Source: Gemmatimonadales bacterium
Lineage (GTDB): Bacteria > Gemmatimonadota > Gemmatimonadetes > Gemmatimonadales > JACORV01
Assembly: GCA_030697825.1 (NCBI GenBank)
Contig: JAUYOW010000135.1
Location: forward strand, 8,556-72,555
Direction: 5' to 3'
Length of the DNA stretch: 64,000 nt
The translations under genes were made by a program, and so were the position numbers. Under the pieces are notes generated by a model. The model saw only the letters and a program-made list of their open reading frames with translations, made no database searches and was not told the DNA's origin. Numbering within the stretch: the stretch's first letter is position 1; every line of letters begins with the position of its first letter. Shown here piece by piece: positions 23,074 to 47,243 of the stretch.

Positions 23074-23299
23074 GCCTAACGAACAGGGTTTAGCTGCGGG
23101 CCGGCGCGTTGGCCGCGCTGGCCCCGCGTTACGCCGCCACAGCTCGCGAACCCAACATGCCAGCGCGGCCAGCCGGCCTCGTCAGCTACAACCCGAGCCT
23201 GTGCGAAAACACCGTTCTGAGCACCCCTAAGTTGTTGATTTACAACGCTGCCACTGCTGCCAAAGTGGCGTTTTCACACAGGCTCACCCGTAGTTAGGC
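23074..23299 (-). other. attC-like recombination site (R'' GCCTAAC ... R' GTTAGGC) interrupted by a 91-bp palindromic insertion
   Basis: GCCTAAC starts 1 nt after the ParE stop and GTTAGGC ends the site. Inner stem arms 23159-23194 / 23086-23122 are homologous to the site at 42364-42489. Confidence 0.5.
23195..23285. mobile_element. MITE-like 91-bp element with 19-bp terminal inverted repeats, flanked by a 4-bp direct repeat ACCC
   Basis: TIRs gagcctgtgcgaaaacacc (23195-213) and ggcgttttcacacaggctc (23267-285), 17/19 complementary. ACCC at 23191-94 and 23286-89. The interior is AT-richer than the surroundings. Confidence 0.4.
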
Positions 23300-39118: not shown

Positions 39119-40228
39119 ATGCCCGCATGGCATCTCCTCGGCGGCAAGTCCGAGTTGCTGGCGCGCGTCCCGTTCACGGTCAAGCTGGAGCGCCACCAGA
39201 TCGCGGTCTTCTTCCACGAGGAACGGTTCCGGGCGATCGGCAACAGCTGCAACCACCAGGGCGGACCGCTGTGCGAGGGGCAGGTTCGCGGCGAGTTCGT
39301 GATGTGCCCGTGGCACGGCTGGGAGTACAGCGTCATCACCGGCAAGGGACCCGAGGGCTACGACGAGGAGCAGGTGCCGGTCTTCGAGGTAGAGGACCGA
39401 GAGGACGGCGTCTACGTCGCCACGCCGCCCGTGATGCCCCGCAAGCTCGTCAAGCACAAGCCGTCACACCTCCTCGAGGGGCACCAAAAGCCGGCCGGCG
39501 CGCCGGCCCGGGTACTGGGCATCTCCACCACCGCGATGGACGACGCCAATCCGCGTTACTCCACATCGGACTCGCTGCTCGGCCACGCCCTGGACCTGGC
39601 CCGCGAGCGGGGCGCCGAGACGAAGCTGGTGCGCTTGAACGAGCTGAAGTTCCGTCCCTGCGAGGGGAACTACTCGAAAGCGGCGCGCGCCTGTACCTGG
39701 CCGTGCGCGATCACCGAGCGCGACCCCGATGACCAGCTCACCGTAGTGTACGAGGGCCTGGTGCACTGGGCCGACGTGGTGCTCATCGCGACGCCGATCC
39801 GGTGGGGCAGCGCCTCGTCGCTGTACTTCAAGATGATCGAGCGCATGAACTGCATCCAGAACCAGATCACCATCCACAACAACGTCCTGATCGGGAACAA
39901 GGTCGCGTCGTTCATCATCACCGGCGGGCAGGACAACATCCAGGCGGTGGCGGGCGGGATGATGACCTTCTGGTCGGAGCTGGGCTTCGTCTTCCCGCCC
40001 TTCCCATTCATCGCCCATTCGCGCGGATGGGACGCCGAGGACATGCAGACCAACGTGCGGCAGGTGAAGGCGAGCGAAGCGCTCCGCACCGCCGCGCGTG
40101 AGCTGGCGGGGCGCGCGATCGACTTCTGGGGGATCGTGGACCGCCACCGCGCAGAGATGGGCAAGCCGATGGAGCGCGCGGGCCGGAAAGCACAATCGTT
40201 GGTGGCGAGAGAGGCGGCGACGACATGA
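39119..40228 (+). CDS. Fusion protein: N-terminal Rieske [2Fe-2S] domain plus C-terminal flavodoxin-like NADPH-dependent FMN reductase / iron-sulfur flavoprotein domain
   Basis: ATG 39119 is preceded by AAGGAAGGAG. Rieske motifs CNHQGGPL and CPWHGWEY. The C-terminal half (VLGISTT...LIATPIRWGSASSLYFKMIERM...FIITGGQDN) looks like an NADPH-FMN reductase fold. Confidence 0.7.
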   Translation: MPAWHLLGGKSELLARVPFTVKLERHQIAVFFHEERFRAIGNSCNHQGGPLCEGQVRGEFVMCPWHGWEYSVITGKGPEGYDEEQVPVFEVEDREDGVYVATPPVMPRKLVKHKPSHLLEGHQKPAGAPARVLGISTTAMDDANPRYSTSDSLLGHALDLARERGAETKLVRLNELKFRPCEGNYSKAARACTWPCAITERDPDDQLTVVYEGLVHWADVVLIATPIRWGSASSLYFKMIERMNCIQNQITIHNNVLIGNKVASFIITGGQDNIQAVAGGMMTFWSELGFVFPPFPFIAHSRGWDAEDMQTNVRQVKASEALRTAARELAGRAIDFWGIVDRHRAEMGKPMERAGRKAQSLVAREAATT

Positions 40229-40662
40229 CCGAGCGCATGCGGGTAGCGAAGGCGTACGAGAAGGCGCTTTTCGCGGGGCGAATGGACGAGGTAGCGGGCT
40301 ACCTCACCGACGACGTCGTGTACTGGGTCGCGGGCGCACCGCCGATCGGCGGCGAGTGGCGTGGCAAGGAGGCGGTGCTGCGCGCCTTCGACCAGCGCGA
40401 ACCCGGACTGGGTGCGGCCGACTGGGGGTATGAGGACCTCGAGCGCTCGTGGTACGATGCCGAGGACCGGGTGATCGTCGAGATCCGCGAGCGCAGCTGG
40501 CTCAAGAGCGCGCCGTCCGACGTGATGGACCAGCGGACCTGCGCCGCGATCCGGTTCCGCGGAGAAAAGATCTGCGAAATGCGCGACTACACCGACTCGC
40601 ACTTGTACGAGGAGTTTCTGAAGCGGCACCGCGGTCAGCTGCCGAAGTTCGCGGGGCGCTGA
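40225..40662 (+). CDS. SnoaL-like / NTF2-fold protein (ketosteroid-isomerase-like)
   Basis: 145 aa. ...AKAYEKALFAGRMDEVAGYLTDDVVYWVAG...RGKEAV...F... is the pattern of SnoaL-like domains. ATGA overlap with the upstream gene. Confidence 0.65.
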   Translation: MTERMRVAKAYEKALFAGRMDEVAGYLTDDVVYWVAGAPPIGGEWRGKEAVLRAFDQREPGLGAADWGYEDLERSWYDAEDRVIVEIRERSWLKSAPSDVMDQRTCAAIRFRGEKICEMRDYTDSHLYEEFLKRHRGQLPKFAGR

Positions 40663-40783: not shown

Positions 40784-40809
40784 GCGCCTATGCCTAAGCG
40801 GATAGGCGC
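40784..40809 (+). terminator. 8-bp hairpin (GCGCCTAT / ATAGGCGC, 10-nt loop GCCTAAGCGG) downstream of the SnoaL-like gene
   Basis: Read directly. There is no U-tract, so terminator function is speculative. Confidence 0.25.
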
Positions 40810-40931
40810 CGGGTGGGCGGGCCGGCTTGCCCGGTTGGTGGCGTGAGCGCACCTTGAACGGCGTCGCTGCGACCGGCCCGGGGGAACGGTGGCGCCGGCG
40901 CCGGCCGCTGCATATCATCGCGAGTCTTGCA

Positions 40932-41027
40932 GGCTAACTCGGCTACGGGGCCGAGCTATCACGCGAGCTTCGCAGCGGTTGTGGTTTTGGACGTGAAGCC
41001 CAATTGCTAGTAAAGACCTGGTTAGCC
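40932..41027 (+). other. attC- or attI-like site preceding cassette 1 (GGCTAAC ... GTTAGCC)
   Basis: The terminal 7-mers are exact reverse complements, and the complementarity extends outward (TGCAGGCTAAC / GTTAGCCAGGCA). There is an internal hairpin CTCGGC-TACGGG-GCCGAG. The inner arms are otherwise poorly paired. Confidence 0.35.
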
Positions 41028-41031
41028 AGGC

Positions 41032-41466
41032 ATGGCGACAGACCACGCACTGAAACTGGGGAAGCTTGTTGGCAACCTCCAATCCCTGGAGGCGGTTCTT
41101 CGCGTCTATCTGCTCAAGATTGGGGAGAAACCGAGACCGGCGAAGCAACAGTCGCATTCGTATTGGGATCTCGTCGTCGGCGACGTAATCAACGCTGACG
41201 AATTCTCGAACTACGACACCCTCGGCACTCTCGTCAGGAAATTCAACGACGACGTCCGCCCGCGCGACACCTCACTATGCGTCGACCCCGCAGTGGTAGA
41301 CGTTCGCGATCTGCTGGCTCACGGACGTGTCGCTGGCTCAGCCGACGACACGGCGACCTTGATGATCGTGAAGTTCGACAAACCGTCCGCCGGGACAGTG
41401 ACAGTGGTGGCGAGCGCCCTGAATGGACGACGCCTGGTTTGCCGCGAACGTCGCATTATCTTATGA
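41032..41466 (+). CDS. Cassette 1 ORF, hypothetical protein (144 aa as listed; 3' end probably frameshifted)
   Basis: Track ORF. The last ~15 residues (NGRRLVCRERRIIL) look out-of-frame, whereas the +1 frame from 41423 reads MDDAWFAANVALSYEQLIRVGKALERYAA and stops at the TAA inside the GCCTAAC box. Confidence 0.5.
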   Translation: MATDHALKLGKLVGNLQSLEAVLRVYLLKIGEKPRPAKQQSHSYWDLVVGDVINADEFSNYDTLGTLVRKFNDDVRPRDTSLCVDPAVVDVRDLLAHGRVAGSADDTATLMIVKFDKPSAGTVTVVASALNGRRLVCRERRIIL

Positions 41467-41506
41467 GCAACTCATCAGGGTCGGAAAGGCACTCGAGCGG
41501 TATGCG

Positions 41507-41604
41507 GCCTAACTTCCGGACGAACCCGATGGCGGAGTCGATTCCCGTTTCGCCGTGGCAACGCGCGTGCCGGCTCCACCCACGGGTTATCCGGCGCGTT
41601 AGGC
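41507..41604 (+). other. attC-like recombination site, 98 nt, canonical architecture
   Basis: GCCTAAC-TT-CCGGA-CG-AACCCG ...(variable)... CGGGTT-A-TCCGG-CGC-GTTAGGC. It has R and L box pairing, an unpaired spacer and extrahelical bases. It starts 41 nt after the ORF stop. Confidence 0.7.
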
Positions 41605-41631
41605 GGCCCGCTAGAGATCGAGGACTGTCCG

Positions 41632-42330
41632 TTGGACGCGATTGACTGGAGAAGGATTGTGCGCTACTTGCCTTCATCGTCCCAATGGCGTAACTGGAGC
41701 CTTCCCAGCCGATTGACGGCGATAGGCGCGGCGATTTCAGTCGTTTCTCTCATAGTAGCTGTTGTGCTTGCATTGCTCGACCAAGCTGCGGATCGGAGCC
41801 GCGCTCGCTTGATGGAGGAGGAAGCCGAGCTACGAAGTCGGCTCGAGTCCGCTGCCCTATCATCAGTTCAGGGCAAGCAGGACGAGCAGTTCCTTGCGCT
41901 CCTCTCGGCGCTCGCGGTGCTTATTGGTGAGCAATCTTCTCTCTCTAGCCGAGTGGCCGATACGGTCACTTTTTCCGGCACAGGCGTTGGCGAGTTCCCG
42001 ACCGGTCTCGCAGTTCTGTCGCGAGTCTTTCAGCAGGATTACCCAGGTGTAGCGAACGACGAGTTGCTTGTCGAGATCGTTGTCGGGTTACCTTCTCCTT
42101 CCGGGCAGAACGACGCACGCCCTGGGGTGCTCGTACAGATTCACCAGCAGGGCTTAAGCTACGAGACGAACGTCTTTCGCGTTGGTGAGCTCGAGCCCCA
42201 TGTTCTCATGCGGGCCCTCGCTGCGGCTGGATTACGCGTGTCCTCAGAGGTCGCGGCCGAAGGCGGCGTCTGGGTCACGATATTCGACCCCGCAAACGGG
42301 AAATCTGCAAGACTTCGAGCGCCGTCTTGA
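41632..42330 (+). CDS. Cassette 2 ORF, single-pass membrane protein of unknown function (start TTG 41632 or GTG 41659)
   Basis: 232 aa. One TM (LTAIGAAISVVSLIVAVVLALL), a charged coiled-coil-like stretch, then a ~130-aa C-terminal domain. No family recognised. Confidence 0.55.
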   Translation: MDAIDWRRIVRYLPSSSQWRNWSLPSRLTAIGAAISVVSLIVAVVLALLDQAADRSRARLMEEEAELRSRLESAALSSVQGKQDEQFLALLSALAVLIGEQSSLSSRVADTVTFSGTGVGEFPTGLAVLSRVFQQDYPGVANDELLVEIVVGLPSPSGQNDARPGVLVQIHQQGLSYETNVFRVGELEPHVLMRALAAAGLRVSSEVAAEGGVWVTIFDPANGKSARLRAPS

Positions 42331-42363
42331 ATCGATGCCCTGAGGCCAGTCTCCGGGTGGGCC

Positions 42364-42489
42364 GCCTAGTTAGGATTTGAACCTGCGGAGCCGGCTGGCC
42401 GCGCCGGCGACCAGGCGGTAAGTGGTTCAGGAACCGCGCACCGGCGCGGCCACGACGCCGGCTCACAGGTTAAAACCACTCTGTTAGGC
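42364..42489 (+). other. attC-like recombination site, 126 nt (degenerate R'' GCCTAGT, R' GTTAGGC)
   Basis: Long imperfect palindrome with arms at 42373-42408 and 42441-42477. It is homologous, with compensatory changes, to the site at 23074-23299 on the other strand. Confidence 0.6.
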
Positions 42490-42523
42490 AGCAGCGGTTA
42501 CTCACACGCACCTAGGCGGCACC

Positions 42524-42940
42524 ATGACCGCGTGGCTCATTCTCCTAATCATCTTCGTTGCCGGGTGTATCGGTGGCATTACCAATGCGGCGATTGCTGG
42601 CGAGTTGCGCTTGCCGTACACCGATCCCGAAGCGCGGGTCTACAGGCCTGGCTGGGTCGGGAACGTGCTCATAGGGGGCATAGCGGCTCTCGTCTTCTGG
42701 GGCCTATACGGCCCGATGGCCGCGGCAGTTCTCATGGGCCCTATCGATCCGGCGGCTCCGCAGCCTCTACTTCGAGTCTCTGAGCTGTTCGCGGCATTGC
42801 TCACGGGAATCGGCGGCGGTAGACTACTTACTGCGGAGGTCGAACGGCGCGTGTTCGATAGAGAGAAGAAGGCCCTCACCGATACGAAGGACGCTCTTGC
42901 AACTGCTGTTAAGAGCCTTGCTGAGGAGGTAAGACAATGA
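42524..42940 (+). CDS. Cassette 3 ORF A: small 3-TM glycine-zipper-rich membrane protein with a C-terminal amphipathic helix
   Basis: 138 aa. TM segments WLILLIIFVAGCIGGITNAAIAG, WVGNVLIGGIAALVFWGLYGPMAAAVLMG, LFAALLTGIGGGRLL. ATGA overlap with ORF B. Confidence 0.6.
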   Translation: MTAWLILLIIFVAGCIGGITNAAIAGELRLPYTDPEARVYRPGWVGNVLIGGIAALVFWGLYGPMAAAVLMGPIDPAAPQPLLRVSELFAALLTGIGGGRLLTAEVERRVFDREKKALTDTKDALATAVKSLAEEVRQ

Positions 42941-43389
42941 CGGACGGCACTCCAAAGGCACCCGATATCGATGCAATTGAGCTTATCGAAACGCTCGCAA
43001 CCCAGATCCCGAGCTCCAGTTCCTTTACCTCGGCAAGCCTAGCCCAACAGATCCTGGAGCAAACCCGTCGGCTCCACGCCTTCCGCAGTGCCCTCGTGGT
43101 TGGCCGCGAGGCGGGCGCCAAGGCCCACGAGATGGTCGAGGCGCAGGTACAGGAGGCGGAGGTCGGGAAGACCTACCAAGGCAAGGTGAAGACGACGACG
43201 GCCTTCGGGGCGTTCGTCGAGATCTTGCCCGGGGTGGAGGGACTGGTCCACATCTCGGAGCTCCAGCACGGCCGCACCGAGAAGACCGAAGACGTCGTGA
43301 AGAAGGGCGACTCGGTCACGGTCAAGGTGCTGGAGGTCGACGAGCACGGGAAGATGAGGCTCTCGCGCAAGGCGGTGCTCGAGAAGTAG
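42937..43389 (+). CDS. Cassette 3 ORF B: chimeric protein, novel ~55-aa N-terminus fused to a PNPase-like linker plus S1 RNA-binding domain
   Basis: The C-terminal AEVGKTYQGKVKTTTAFGAFVEILPGVEGLVHISEL...GDSVTVKVLEVDEHGKMRLSRKA is an S1 domain closest in style to the PNPase C-terminus. Codon usage switches at about nt 43100. Confidence 0.6.
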   Translation: MTDGTPKAPDIDAIELIETLATQIPSSSSFTSASLAQQILEQTRRLHAFRSALVVGREAGAKAHEMVEAQVQEAEVGKTYQGKVKTTTAFGAFVEILPGVEGLVHISELQHGRTEKTEDVVKKGDSVTVKVLEVDEHGKMRLSRKAVLEK

Positions 43390-43403
43390 GACCTCCTACT
43401 GAA

Positions 43404-43439
43404 GGCACCCACGCCCGGTAGGTGCCCGCACCTAGGTGC
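43404..43439 (+). terminator. Hairpin GGCACC-N11-GGTGCC followed by the 12-bp palindrome GCACCTAGGTGC, then a T-rich stretch; possible terminator
   Basis: Hairpin arms at 43404-09 / 43421-26, palindrome at 43428-39, followed by ...GCTGCTGTTTAGTATC. Confidence 0.35.
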
Positions 43440-43506
43440 CGCCTCGCTGCTGTTTAGTATCAAGTTTGAAGTGCAACAGCGGTTCATGAAGCAAAGCATT
43501 GGGGAG

Positions 43507-44715
43507 TCAGCCACTGCCTCGCGCGGGATTGCTTCGCGGCACGCCGAACGCGACCAAGCCGCCAATAGCCATTACCGCCGCCGCCGCGACGAACGCCGTC
43601 ATCGGGCCGGCCCGGTCGTATGATGCTCCGGTCGCAACAGGGCCGAGCAGGCGCCCCAGAGCGCTGAGTGACTGCGCGACTCCGAGGACCGTTCCCTGCT
43701 CCGCCGGGCCCGCCAGGACGGACACCATGCCGGTGGCCGCCGGAGAGAACACGCTCTGCGAGAAGGCCAGCACGACCGTCCAGCCGTAGAGCACGGGCAC
43801 CCGAGACAGGAACGGCACCGCGGCGACGCCGGCCGCCATACCGAACAGACCGAGGATCAAGAGCGCGCGGTCACCGGTGAGGCGCACCAGTCGCCCGAAC
43901 AGCCAACCCTGCACCAGCGCCGCGGTGACCCCGATGACGGTGAACAGGAACCCCAGGTCCCGCTCGTGCCACCCGAAGGTCGTGTTGGCGAATAACGGCA
44001 GCGCCACCGTGTAGCCCGCGAACGCGAAGGGCGCGAGCGCCCACACGATCAGGAGCGGGCGCAATCGAGCGTTCCTGAACGCCTCCGCCAGGTGCCTGAA
44101 CGGCCAGAAGTCGGTGGCGGTCCGGTGCTCTTCCCTGAGCGACTCCGGGAGTATCCGGTAGGCCAGCACGAAGTTCCCGAGGGAGAGCCCCGCGGCCACC
44201 AATCCGGGGCCGGTGTGCCCCCAATAGTGTCCCGCGATGCCGCCGATCGCCGGCCCGAGCGTGAAGCCGATGCCGAAGGCCGCGCCGATCATCCCCATCC
44301 CCTTCGACCGCTCCGCGCTGGTGGTGACGTCGGCGATGTAGGCCTGCGCCGCGGAGATGTTGCCGCCCGCGAAGCCGGAGACCAGCCGCGCGATGAGCAG
44401 CACGCCGAAGGAGGGAGCGAACGCGAACATGATGTAACCGGCAGCGTTGATGACGGTCGTCGCGAGGATGATCGGCCGCCGCCCCACCCGGTCCGACCAA
44501 CGGCCTAGCAGCGCGGTCGCGATGAACTGCATGCCCGAGAACGCGCCCATCAGCACGCCGAACCCCAGCGCGTTCGCCCCGAACCGCTGCGAGTAGTACG
44601 GCAGTATGGGGATGATTATCCCGAATCCGATGAGGTCTATCAGGACCGTGAGGAAGATGACGCCGAGGCGGCCTCTCATCGTCGGCGGGGGGGCGGGAAG
44701 CGGGGGCTCACCCAT
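43507..44715 (-). CDS. MFS transporter (drug:H+ antiporter / TCR-like); start uncertain (44715 or 44679)
   Basis: 12-TM style sequence. MFS motif A-like GRWSDRVGRRP. N-terminus ...LGVIFLTVLIDLIGFGIIIPILPYY. Confidence 0.8.
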   Translation of the reverse strand: MGEPPLPAPPPTMRGRLGVIFLTVLIDLIGFGIIIPILPYYSQRFGANALGFGVLMGAFSGMQFIATALLGRWSDRVGRRPIILATTVINAAGYIMFAFAPSFGVLLIARLVSGFAGGNISAAQAYIADVTTSAERSKGMGMIGAAFGIGFTLGPAIGGIAGHYWGHTGPGLVAAGLSLGNFVLAYRILPESLREEHRTATDFWPFRHLAEAFRNARLRPLLIVWALAPFAFAGYTVALPLFANTTFGWHERDLGFLFTVIGVTAALVQGWLFGRLVRLTGDRALLILGLFGMAAGVAAVPFLSRVPVLYGWTVVLAFSQSVFSPAATGMVSVLAGPAEQGTVLGVAQSLSALGRLLGPVATGASYDRAGPMTAFVAAAAVMAIGGLVAFGVPRSNPARGSG

Positions 44716-45790
44716 CGCGTTTCTTCTTGACATGCTTGTGGAGCGCGCGACCCGCCGACCGCTCCTTTCGATCGGCCGTGGCAGGGCCCTGGTGCTCGCC
44801 GCGCGCGCGCGCCGCGAGCTCACGCACCAGCTTGTGGTAGCTCTCGAGCCGGTCGGCGGCGATCCGCCCCTCGGCCAGCGCCGCCTTCACGGCGCAACCG
44901 GGCTCCGGGCCGTGCGCGCAGTCGCGGAACGCGCAGTGCTCGCCCAGCGACTCGACATCGTCGAAGGCGCTCAACAGCCCGGGGCCGGCGCCGCTGAGCT
45001 GAAGCTCGCGCATGCCGGGCGTATCGATGAGTATCCCACCCCCCGGCAGCAGCACCAGCTCGCGGCGCGCGGTCGTGTGGCGGCCCTTGTCGTCCCCCTC
45101 GCGGATCTCGCCGGTCGCCTGGCGCTCGAAGCCGACGAGCGCATTGATCAGGGTGCTTTTCCCCACGCCGGACGAGCCGAGGAGCGCGCCGGTGCGGTGT
45201 GGGAGCAGGTGCGCGCGCAGCGCGTCCACCCCCAGCCCGGTCTTGGCGCTGGTCACGTGCACCTGCGCGCCGACCGCGACAGCCTCGACCTCTCGCACTA
45301 TCGGCGCGGTATCGACCATGCGGTCTGCCTTCGACAGGACCACGACCGGGGCCGCACCGCTTTCCCAGGCCAGCGCGAGGTAGCGCTCCAGGCGGCGCAG
45401 GTTCAGCTCTGCGTTGAGCGAAGTGACGATGAAGACGACATCGACATTGGCCGCGATGGTCTGGTCGCCATGCTCGCGTCCCGCGGCCTTGCGGGTGAAA
45501 AGGCTCGAGCGCGGCAGCACGGCGTCAATGATCCCGGGCCCGTCGCCGGACGACGGGGAGAACGCGACCCAGTCGCCGACCGCGGGCAGGTCCGAGCGGG
45601 AGCCGGCGGCGTGGCGCATGCGCCCGCCTACCGAGGCTTCGGCTTCGCCCTGCTCGGTGAGGAGCTCGTAGACGCTGCGATGCTCCACGGCGACGCGCGC
45701 GGGGGTCCGTCCAGCCGTGGCGTGCGGCGCGAAGTGCGCCGCGAATCGTTCGCTCCAGCCGAGTCGCTCGAGCTCGGCTCGTCCCGTCAC
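44708..45790 (-). CDS. rsgA: Ribosome small-subunit-dependent GTPase A
   Basis: 360 aa. Circularly permuted GTPase order (...VLSKADR..., GSSGVGKSTLINAL, ...DTPGMRE) and C-terminal zinc motif CAFRDCAHGPEPGCAV. Confidence 0.85.
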   Translation of the reverse strand: MTGRAELERLGWSERFAAHFAPHATAGRTPARVAVEHRSVYELLTEQGEAEASVGGRMRHAAGSRSDLPAVGDWVAFSPSSGDGPGIIDAVLPRSSLFTRKAAGREHGDQTIAANVDVVFIVTSLNAELNLRRLERYLALAWESGAAPVVVLSKADRMVDTAPIVREVEAVAVGAQVHVTSAKTGLGVDALRAHLLPHRTGALLGSSGVGKSTLINALVGFERQATGEIREGDDKGRHTTARRELVLLPGGGILIDTPGMRELQLSGAGPGLLSAFDDVESLGEHCAFRDCAHGPEPGCAVKAALAEGRIAADRLESYHKLVRELAARARGEHQGPATADRKERSAGRALHKHVKKKRDG

Positions 45791-45830: not shown

Positions 45831-47243
45831 CTACCGCGCCGGTGCCGGAGCCGGCGCCGTCCCCCGCGGCAACCGCTCCGGCAGGTCCGCCACGACGTAC
45901 GCCATCACCGCGAGTGCGGCCACGCACTGCGCCATTTCGCGCGGGTCGAGCTTGTCCACCGTGTCGCCGTCGCTGTGGTGGAACCAGAAGTAGCGAGTGC
46001 CGTCCACGTTGAGGCCGAGTCCGGGGACGCCGCGCCGCATGATGGGGCCGATGTCGGCGCCGCCTCCGCCGCGGGAGATCGAATCCGCACCGATGGGCCG
46101 GAGCAGGCTCGCCACCTGCCGCACTAGCGCCATCGCCGAGTCGGAGCCGGTGAAGCCGTAGCCCAGCGGGCGGAAAACGCCGCCGTCGGCCTCGATCGCG
46201 AGAACGTGGTTGTCGAGCTCCGCGGCGTGCGCGTCTCGATAGGCGTTGCCGCCGCGCAGCCCGTTCTCCTCGTTGGTCCAGCCCACCATCCGCACCGTCC
46301 GGCGCGGCCTGAGGCCCAGGCGCTGAAGCAACCGCACCGCCTCCCACGCGGCGACCACGCCTCCGCCGTCGTCCATCGCCCCCTGCCCCACGTCCCACGA
46401 ATCGATGTGTCCGCCCAGTACCACTACTTCCTCGGGACGCTCGCTCCCCACCAGCTCCGCCACGATGTTCCGCGACGGCGCGTCCGGGAGCATTCGCGCT
46501 TCCATGGTGAGACGGACGACGACTCGCTCGCCGCGATCGCTCATCCGGTGCAGCATCATCGCGTCCTCGACGCTCAGCGCCGCCGCGGGGATGCGCTGTA
46601 CCGTGGAGTCGTACTGGAGCGCGCCGGTGTGCGGCGAGCCGATGGAGTAGGAGGCGACCGTTCGGATGAGACACGCCACCGCGCCTGCCCGCGCTGCCGC
46701 GCTGGGGCCGTCGCTCCGGTACCGCACCGTGGCGCCATAGTTCGTGAACGGCACGTCGAAGAGGACGATCTTGCCGCGCGCCTCCGCCGCGCGCGCCGTG
46801 AGGTCGGCGAAGCTGGTCACGACGAGCACTTCGCCCGTGATGCCGCGGCGTGACGTGCCGACGCTTCCGCCGAGGCCCAGCATCGCCAGGCGCTGCGGCC
46901 GTGGCGACACCAGCTCGGCGGACTCGTTCCCGCGCACCCAGTGCGGCACCATCACCGGCTCGCCGCGCACGTTCTGCAACCCGTCACGCTGCATCTCGGC
47001 CAGGACCCAGTCGATGGCGCGCTCCAGGCTCGCCGAGCCGCTGAGGCGATGGCCGAAGGTGTCCACCATCCGCGCGAGGCGCTGCCACGCCGCGCTGTCG
47101 CGCGTCGCTTCGGCGATGATGCGGCCCGCCACGGCCTGGTAGCGGTCGGCGATCGGTCCGCCCGCGGCGGCCTGCCCGGCGAGCCGGTGCGGCGCGGCCA
47201 GCGCACCGGCGAGGAGAGCGGCAAAAGCGAATGGCGGTCTCAT
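45831..47243 (-). CDS. M28 family metallopeptidase with PA domain, secreted
   Basis: 470 aa. Signal peptide, PA-domain-like insert, and M28 zinc-ligand regions (...LGGHIDSWDVGQGAMDDGGG..., ...WTNEENGLRG..., ...FHHSDGDT...). Confidence 0.8.
   Translation of the reverse strand: MRPPFAFAALLAGALAAPHRLAGQAAAGGPIADRYQAVAGRIIAEATRDSAAWQRLARMVDTFGHRLSGSASLERAIDWVLAEMQRDGLQNVRGEPVMVPHWVRGNESAELVSPRPQRLAMLGLGGSVGTSRRGITGEVLVVTSFADLTARAAEARGKIVLFDVPFTNYGATVRYRSDGPSAAARAGAVACLIRTVASYSIGSPHTGALQYDSTVQRIPAAALSVEDAMMLHRMSDRGERVVVRLTMEARMLPDAPSRNIVAELVGSERPEEVVVLGGHIDSWDVGQGAMDDGGGVVAAWEAVRLLQRLGLRPRRTVRMVGWTNEENGLRGGNAYRDAHAAELDNHVLAIEADGGVFRPLGYGFTGSDSAMALVRQVASLLRPIGADSISRGGGGADIGPIMRRGVPGLGLNVDGTRYFWFHHSDGDTVDKLDPREMAQCVAALAVMAYVVADLPERLPRGTAPAPAPAR

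Follow-up and report, generated by a model that had tools for sequence, protein, structure and literature searches.

The 150-aa ORF at positions 42937-43389 (+ strand) is a compositional and phylogenetic chimera, in which cassette DNA is joined in frame to the 3' end of a polynucleotide phosphorylase (PNPase) gene, pnp. It lies within a window of 64,000 nucleotides, by which we mean the whole stretch of DNA that was analyzed (C132:8556-72555), on a 93-kb contig of a Gemmatimonadales MAG that comprises 333 contigs and is 98% complete. The best explanation for the fusion is a mosaic created by DNA joining, apparently as a one-off, and not a damaged host gene. In its specific form, this account holds that a truncated terminal cassette was fused in frame to a pnp 3' piece of foreign lineage by illegitimate recombination, and we consider that course of events reasonably probable.

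Codon composition separates the two halves of the ORF. A/T-ending codons account for 19 of the first 55 positions vs 4 of the remaining 95 (Fisher p = 1.3e-6), exactly reproducing the count on which the original prediction was built, and GC3 rises from 0.65 over 42937-43101 to 0.96 over 43102-43389. Values of 0.62-0.70 were obtained for the three upstream cassette ORFs and of 0.88-0.90 for the flanking host genes, while the G+C content is approximately 70% over the whole window and 59-61% in the interval 41000-43000. The compositional switch had been placed near 43100, and BLASTN detects pnp homology from 43095 onward; the GC3 change and the BLASTN limits together uphold the earlier description of the ORF as a compositional chimera in which cassette DNA meets the 3' end of pnp.

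Read from its start, the ORF consists of an orf4' N-terminal domain portion of about 53 codons (42937-43094, + strand, GC3 0.65), delimited by alignment with the small proteins (65-90 aa) that accompany orf3, and a pnp 3' piece (43095-43389, + strand, GC3 0.96), delimited with Pfam, BLASTN and NCBIfam, that encodes the KH-S1 linker helix, the S1 domain and the stop codon. Codon-level comparison of the window with three orf4' genes and pnp defines a junction zone at 43085-43107 (+ strand). Beyond the stop codon, a 117-bp spacer (43390-43506, no strand assigned) that carries no attC, terminator or M16 peptidase homology precedes a convergent MFS gene. The start of the ORF overlaps the stop codon of orf3 (ATGA), with GGAGG 8 nt upstream. 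In a collection of 5.8 billion proteins the chimeric ORF is a singleton, with no second protein spanning both halves.

The 3' half encodes a complete S1 domain (PF00575), with residues 74-145 matching profile positions 2-74 of 74 at 70.1 bits, above the Pfam gathering threshold of 22. Among NCBIfam models the best match was the PNPase equivalog TIGR03591, at positions 599-689 of 689, and all rpsA and stand-alone S1 models scored lower. Full-length PNPases are those above the equivalog cut-off, with two RNase PH domains, a KH domain and an S1 domain; the 150-aa ORF falls outside this group, scoring 100 bits against a cut-off of 525 (TIGR03591 / NF008805). BLASTN aligned 43095-43389 with the last 295 nt of the resident pnp without gaps, at about 86% nucleotide identity (85.8%) and 88% amino acid identity, and the alignment ends at a common TAG. 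The lead of TIGR03591 and the colinearity to the stop codon indicate that the source was pnp and not a different S1 gene. The S1 repeats of rpsA in the same genome share 38-49% identity with the piece, vs 85-87.5% at the nucleotide level for pnp genes of the family. The Pfam, TIGR03591 and resident pnp matches thus agree with the initial recognition of this segment as the KH-S1 linker helix and S1 domain of a PNPase C-terminus. It had also been stated that the window lacks a 5' part of pnp, and indeed PNPase residues 598-693 alone are encoded there.

The resident pnp is intact and occurs as a single full-length copy on another contig (C137:31639-33720, 693 aa), with profile scores of 968 bits (cut-off 471) and 960 bits, in the gene order rpsO-pnp-M16 peptidase with the M16 gene immediately downstream. 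One of the two origins first proposed for the fragment, a rearrangement that truncated pnp in place, was rejected in view of this intact gene together with the ancestral adjacency of the SnoaL and MFS genes that now flank the cassettes. Nor do relatives place pnp beside the MFS block, a synteny that had been suggested for comparison; in those genomes SnoaL and MFS are neighbors and pnp is located elsewhere. For annotation, ORF 42937-43389 should be named neither a truncated pnp nor a second pnp.

The other proposed origin was capture of a duplicated pnp 3' end at the array boundary. Its boundary-capture component stands, while the idea that the captured DNA was a copy of the resident gene does not. 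The best match found for the piece was the pnp of same-genus G003 (= L191/L111), at 87.5% nucleotide identity, and the pnp genes of the family's other genera match it at 85-86%, within the 85-89% that true pnp tails show among themselves. In a maximum-likelihood tree, the piece occupies a long branch (0.116) within a polytomy with supports below 50 and does not pair with the resident gene. A recent duplication of the resident pnp was rejected on these grounds, as the piece is no closer to that gene than to those of other genera. This equidistance implies that the piece is either very old or derived from a different lineage, and we read it as a probable tail from another member of the family. 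The collections searched contained no pnp tail identical to the piece.

Substitutions in the piece retain the imprint of a functional gene. Differences from the resident gene at codon positions 1/2/3 number 12/4/25 for the piece and 6/3/24 for a true pnp pair, a pattern suggesting that the piece diverged mostly while it belonged to working pnp genes under purifying selection. Seven residues of the piece (G3R, R10H, I/L16Q, E27Q, I72S, R83H and L93V) are rare (<2%) among 160 true Gemmatimonadales tails, which themselves carry a mean of 0.76 such residues and reach seven in 3/160 cases. None of the seven falls within the 44-residue S1 core (tail residues 28-71). These rare residues fit a modest phase of relaxed or altered evolution since the presumed capture.

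A candidate second pnp-tail copy in the relative G028 was rejected because this pnp is not chimeric but carries an internal deletion or a frameshift. At that locus (L197, G028:C2:690-2498) pnp is split into a 5' ORF ending ...GDMDFIQEQTGA and a 107-aa S1 ORF, with the KH region absent, and the split could reflect either an assembly error or a deletion within the gene. A further pnp-like match is present on G028:C27. The 97-113 aa "short PNPases" retrieved by protein search were likewise dismissed as products of contig ends or frameshifts, their number matching that of random contig breaks.

The low-GC half of the ORF is, as judged by alignment, the N-domain of orf4', which occupies second place in an integron cassette of two genes. 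Residues 1 to approximately 53 align with a conserved N-domain of the form LATQIPSSSSFxSASLAxxIL...R that is found in orf4' proteins of 65-90 aa; past a V-x-G motif, these relatives continue into short, non-conserved tails rich in Ser/Thr/Ala/Pro. The first gene of the pair, orf3 (42524-42940, + strand, GC3 0.65), encodes a 138-aa membrane protein with roughly 80 homologues in metagenomes, which range from 120 to 158 aa and belong to no Pfam family. In every context read on other contigs, a small orf4' follows orf3 and overlaps it; its length is 86 aa in both L022 and L023, 82 aa in L024 and 65 aa in L201-L206. A query with the 55-residue N-part against 1.8 billion cluster representatives returned four clusters, of 73, 81, 90 and 260 aa. 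The pair behaves as a cassette in these contexts: attC sites (GCCTAAC...GTTAGGC) lie on both sides of it in L202/L201, within a long array of small same-strand ORFs, and an attC occurs about 10-20 nt past the second gene in L022 and L207. A tyrosine recombinase adjoins the pair in L022, where orf3-orf4' is an ordinary attC-terminated cassette. Searches of PADLOC, PHROGs and NCBIfam yielded no family for orf3, orf4', ORF1 or ORF2, and orf3/orf4' DNA was absent from 40/40 relatives searched.

The 260-aa member, P0205 (L207:3886-4668, on a Logan SRR9952632 contig), combines the orf4' N-domain with a long linker and a receiver domain (PF00072). This singleton fusion resides beside an orf3 homologue in an attC-terminated cassette (GTCTAAC...GTTAGAC) within an array, and its added part has a higher G+C content than the rest of the cassette.

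In the window, two cassettes precede the orf3-orf4' pair and each ends with an attC. The attC of cassette 1 (41507-41604, + strand), located by motif scan, has perfect R''/R' cores (R'' GCCTAAC, R' GTTAGGC) and a fold z of -2.0, and the attC of cassette 2 (42364-42489, + strand) has a fold z of -5.8 / -6.8. They score 44 and 69 bits, respectively, as training-set sites of a covariance model built from 11 attC sites that include both; as a control, the model also detected non-training sites at window positions 23074-23204 and in L022. Copies of the cassette-2 attC family occur at seven other places in the genome, on C31 (four copies), C269, C313 and C179. Cassette 3 opens in the expected manner (G/TTRRRY), at an R' core GTTAGGC at 42483-42489 that lies 35 nt before the orf3 start. 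Its homologues end with an attC of their own and it does not: the interval 43095-43520 contains no core sites, 43387-43510 gives no fold signal, and the attC model finds no match there at E <= 10 with filters off. The absence of the site by cores, fold and model implies that the pnp piece stands where the orf4' tail and attC should be.

With at least two close attC sites and no integron integrase nearby, the array qualifies as a CALIN. An integron integrase is encoded at C6:6789-7730 (412 bits, cut-off 265) and is the only one above the cut-off in the genome. An attC of the same core type (GCCTAAC...GTTAGGC) lies approximately 600 nt from it, at C6:8331-8424, and the two probably constitute the genome's complete integron. 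The presence of the integrase on C6 and its absence near the array identify the window cluster as an integrase-less array. Partial integrase matches were also seen at the contig ends of C278 and C243. Just upstream of the first cassette, a repeat of about 230 bp (40792-41018) has copies of 85-94% identity on C159, C271, C48 (three partial) and C88; its fold is no better than that of shuffles and the attC model gives it 8 bits, so that it is not an attC by this model, and it may be an array-leader or mobile-element remnant. The attC model further reports 20.6 bits (E = 0.003) at 46161-46244, inside a peptidase gene (45831-47243), which is probably a false positive.

The three cassettes form an island of 2.8 kb, without an integrase, between a SnoaL gene (40225-40662) and the convergent MFS gene (43507-44823). 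The SnoaL-MFS gap is about 240 bp in same-genus G001 and about 40-260 bp in G012 and G020, and it measures 1.1 kb in same-genus G003 (L008, G003:C17), where it contains one unrelated ORF. The different insert at the same spot in G003 indicates that this intergenic region varies among relatives. Comparison with these genomes shows the array to be an insertion between genes that are adjacent in relatives; at the island borders, the intergenic DNA of the closest relative is similar to neither flank. The ORF in the G003 insert appears nitroreductase-like by eye.

Closer inspection of the left junction reveals how the two parents may have been joined. The window reads ...R-S-A-L-V-V-G|R-E-A-G-A-K, where relatives of the parents read ...N-S-I-V-H-G-G-T (orf4') and ...I-S-A-V-G-G-E-A-G (pnp). 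The microhomology at the crossover was likely V-G-G, encoded by GTN GGC GGC (GTNGGCGGC), as reconstructed from relatives rather than from the actual parents. The occurrence of V-G-G in relatives of both parents fits microhomology-mediated illegitimate joining. IntI-mediated insertion at a GTT secondary site (43097-43099) is not favored, as the left side is orf4' coding sequence where an attC would be expected.

The right junction is sharper. The original prediction placed hairpins and a T-rich stretch beyond the stop codon as a possible native pnp terminator, and four observations speak against such a terminator: no terminator-like site was found on the + strand after 43389, the fold of 43387-43510 is no better than that of shuffles (z = -0.4), homology to 154 pnp loci ends at 43389-43393, and an M16 peptidase gene directly follows pnp in 154/154 related loci with enough flanking sequence. 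A native terminator past the stop codon was thereby rejected. The window instead runs from the pnp stop into the unrelated spacer, and this, together with the limit of homology, places the right break within about 10 nt of the stop codon, a precision that we cannot attribute to chance alone.

The spacer has features of its own. Its positions 43435-43459 repeat part of the cassette-3 leader (42499-42523) in inverted orientation, with the blocks GGTGCCGCCT and CGCTGCTG exact and an internal gap, and this may be the trace of a fold-back or template-switch event at a broken end. A 44-nt element at 43457-43500 (GTATCAAGTTTGAAGTGCAACAGCGGTTCATGAAGCAAAGCATT) is 85% identical to C191:6236-6281, which likewise lies just past a stop codon, between genes.

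We propose that a pnp piece of about 300 bp from another family member joined into orf4' at the V-G-G microhomology, either by fragment capture during break repair or by a template switch. Such joining would have deleted the distal end of the terminal cassette, with the loss of its own tail and attC, and probably took place in an earlier host of the array; a pnp tail from a family-level relative suggests that a different Gemmatimonadales host once carried the array, or its broken end. Same orientation and frame would be a 1-in-6 outcome, so the open frame needs no selection. Retention of the ATGA overlap and the Shine-Dalgarno sequence makes it probable that the fusion protein is translated whenever orf3 is expressed, and the orf4' N-domain is predicted to bear an intact RNA-binding S1 fold in this protein. 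We regard the fusion as a probable tolerated relic. Against joining by chance, both breakpoints fall at domain borders, namely the end of the conserved orf4' domain and the KH-S1 linker, and these positions, combined with a right end about 10 nt from the stop codon, are tidier than two random breaks usually give.

Junctions of this kind could also be produced by assembly, if an assembler working on the reads of this 333-contig MAG had spliced 295 bp of another population's pnp into the contig at GC-rich shared k-mers. Three short single-sample ENA metagenome contigs are relevant to this scenario: L026 (987 bp), L027 (638 bp, coverage 0.8) and L028 (757 bp) each have a pnp tail joined at most 36 nt from the window junction to a different partner, namely upstream DNA of an FG-GAP-like gene, the N-terminus of a lipoprotein cytochrome c, and a hydrophobic ORF. 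They may be low-coverage mis-joins at a GC-rich motif, and k-mer mis-joins at a GGCGGCGAGGC-type motif could yield such breaks. For the window, however, two mis-joins 295 bp apart would be needed inside a 93-kb contig, the second of which must hit just past the pnp stop codon and return not to M16 but to an MFS gene syntenic with SnoaL. Moreover, the sequence shared at the left junction does not exceed about 9 nt, which is much shorter than the assembler k, and the collections searched contained no identical pnp tail. We therefore judge an assembly artifact to be quite improbable.

The same contigs bear on a further possibility, in which the piece is the surrogate 3' end of an integrative element that targeted the pnp KH-S1 linker and was later stranded. 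Like surrogate 3' ends, the piece terminates at the stop codon, and most of its differences from the host gene are synonymous; in L026 and L028, foreign DNA is followed by the pnp tail and then by the native M16 peptidase gene, resembling an attR junction, and a tyrosine recombinase sits beside orf3-orf4' in L022. An element of this type should, however, have an adjacent recombinase and occupied targets. No integrase lies in or near the island, the pair in L022 is an ordinary attC-terminated cassette, 0/160 pnp loci are broken at the junction in question, and the native M16 neighbor in 154/154 loci leaves no attL-type junction in view. The junctions of the four cases also differ by up to 36 nt. 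An attachment-site relic is hence a most improbable source of the piece, and the unbroken loci with their native neighbor equally leave the pnp linker unsupported as a recurrent integration site.

A functional reading of the fusion deserves more weight, and we hold it tentatively, as possible yet rather doubtful. Here the orf4' N-domain would be an adaptor for the membrane protein orf3, with a variable C-terminus that recruited the RNA-binding S1 domain of PNPase, such that the cassette would encode a membrane-associated RNA-binding pair, a sensor or an effector, under selection. The retained translational coupling and Shine-Dalgarno sequence, a junction at domain borders on both sides and an S1 core left unchanged by the seven unusual substitutions are all compatible with this reading, although constraint in the donor pnp before capture would explain the conservation of the core equally well. 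A single-sequence AF2 model draws a continuous helix across the junction, but its mean pLDDT of 49 makes it unreliable. The receiver fusion P0205 supplies a second, independent partner for the N-domain in an attC-bounded cassette, and its occurrence in an intact cassette raises the possibility that selection favors the acquisition of domains at the orf4' C-terminus. For a family of about five clusters, two independent grafts at the C-terminus are suggestive and not proof, and both are singletons. In addition, a cassette without attC is no longer a mobile unit, and defense and phage libraries returned no match.

The origin and diversification of integron cassettes are poorly understood. A broader and unlikely extension of the functional reading is that the orf4' N-domain adaptor repeatedly captures 3'-terminal, domain-encoding pieces of chromosomal genes, and that the S1 fusion is a working, membrane-partnered RNA-binding protein. 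If this were true, the S1 and receiver mosaics would be snapshots of cassettes building new proteins from host gene ends. The two independent orf4' fusions would offer a concrete case of domain accretion inside cassettes; as two singletons, they constitute a lead and not a finding. Under our preferred account, a one-off joining at a broken terminal cassette, the ORF should likewise not be annotated as a native "S1-domain partner" of the membrane protein, since the S1 part was grafted on late and stems from a different gene.

Several known systems resemble the chimera in part. In the icd / icdC case of phage 21 and e14 in E. coli, the 3' end of a gene is duplicated at a prophage attachment site. 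The window shares with this arrangement a short 3' fragment of a housekeeping gene that extends to the exact stop codon, with mainly synonymous divergence, beside mobile DNA. In contrast to icd / icdC, there is no integrase here, the fragment lies away from the resident pnp, and 0/154 pnp loci carry an insertion. The product also recalls the stand-alone S1 proteins (CvfD/Ygs/GSP13, NF040579; PRK08582), which are small proteins with one S1 domain as the only recognizable fold. It differs from these in scoring 100 bits with TIGR03591 vs 63-68 with the stand-alone families, all of these scores being below the respective cut-offs, in an S1 part that is 85-91% identical to pnp genes of the family, and in possessing a cassette-derived N-domain.

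Integrons are already on record in the Gemmatimonadota. The closest parallel is provided by CALINs, clusters of attC sites without an integron integrase, for which formation routes have been discussed (PMC8618304). The window array resembles the truncated terminal cassettes in CALINs of sedentary chromosomal integrons in its small same-strand ORFs with one attC family between them, in having no integrase in the cluster and an IntI elsewhere in the genome, and in its location in a variable intergenic spot. The difference is that its distal cassette ends neither in an attC nor in plain flanking DNA but in part of another lineage's housekeeping gene, joined in frame.
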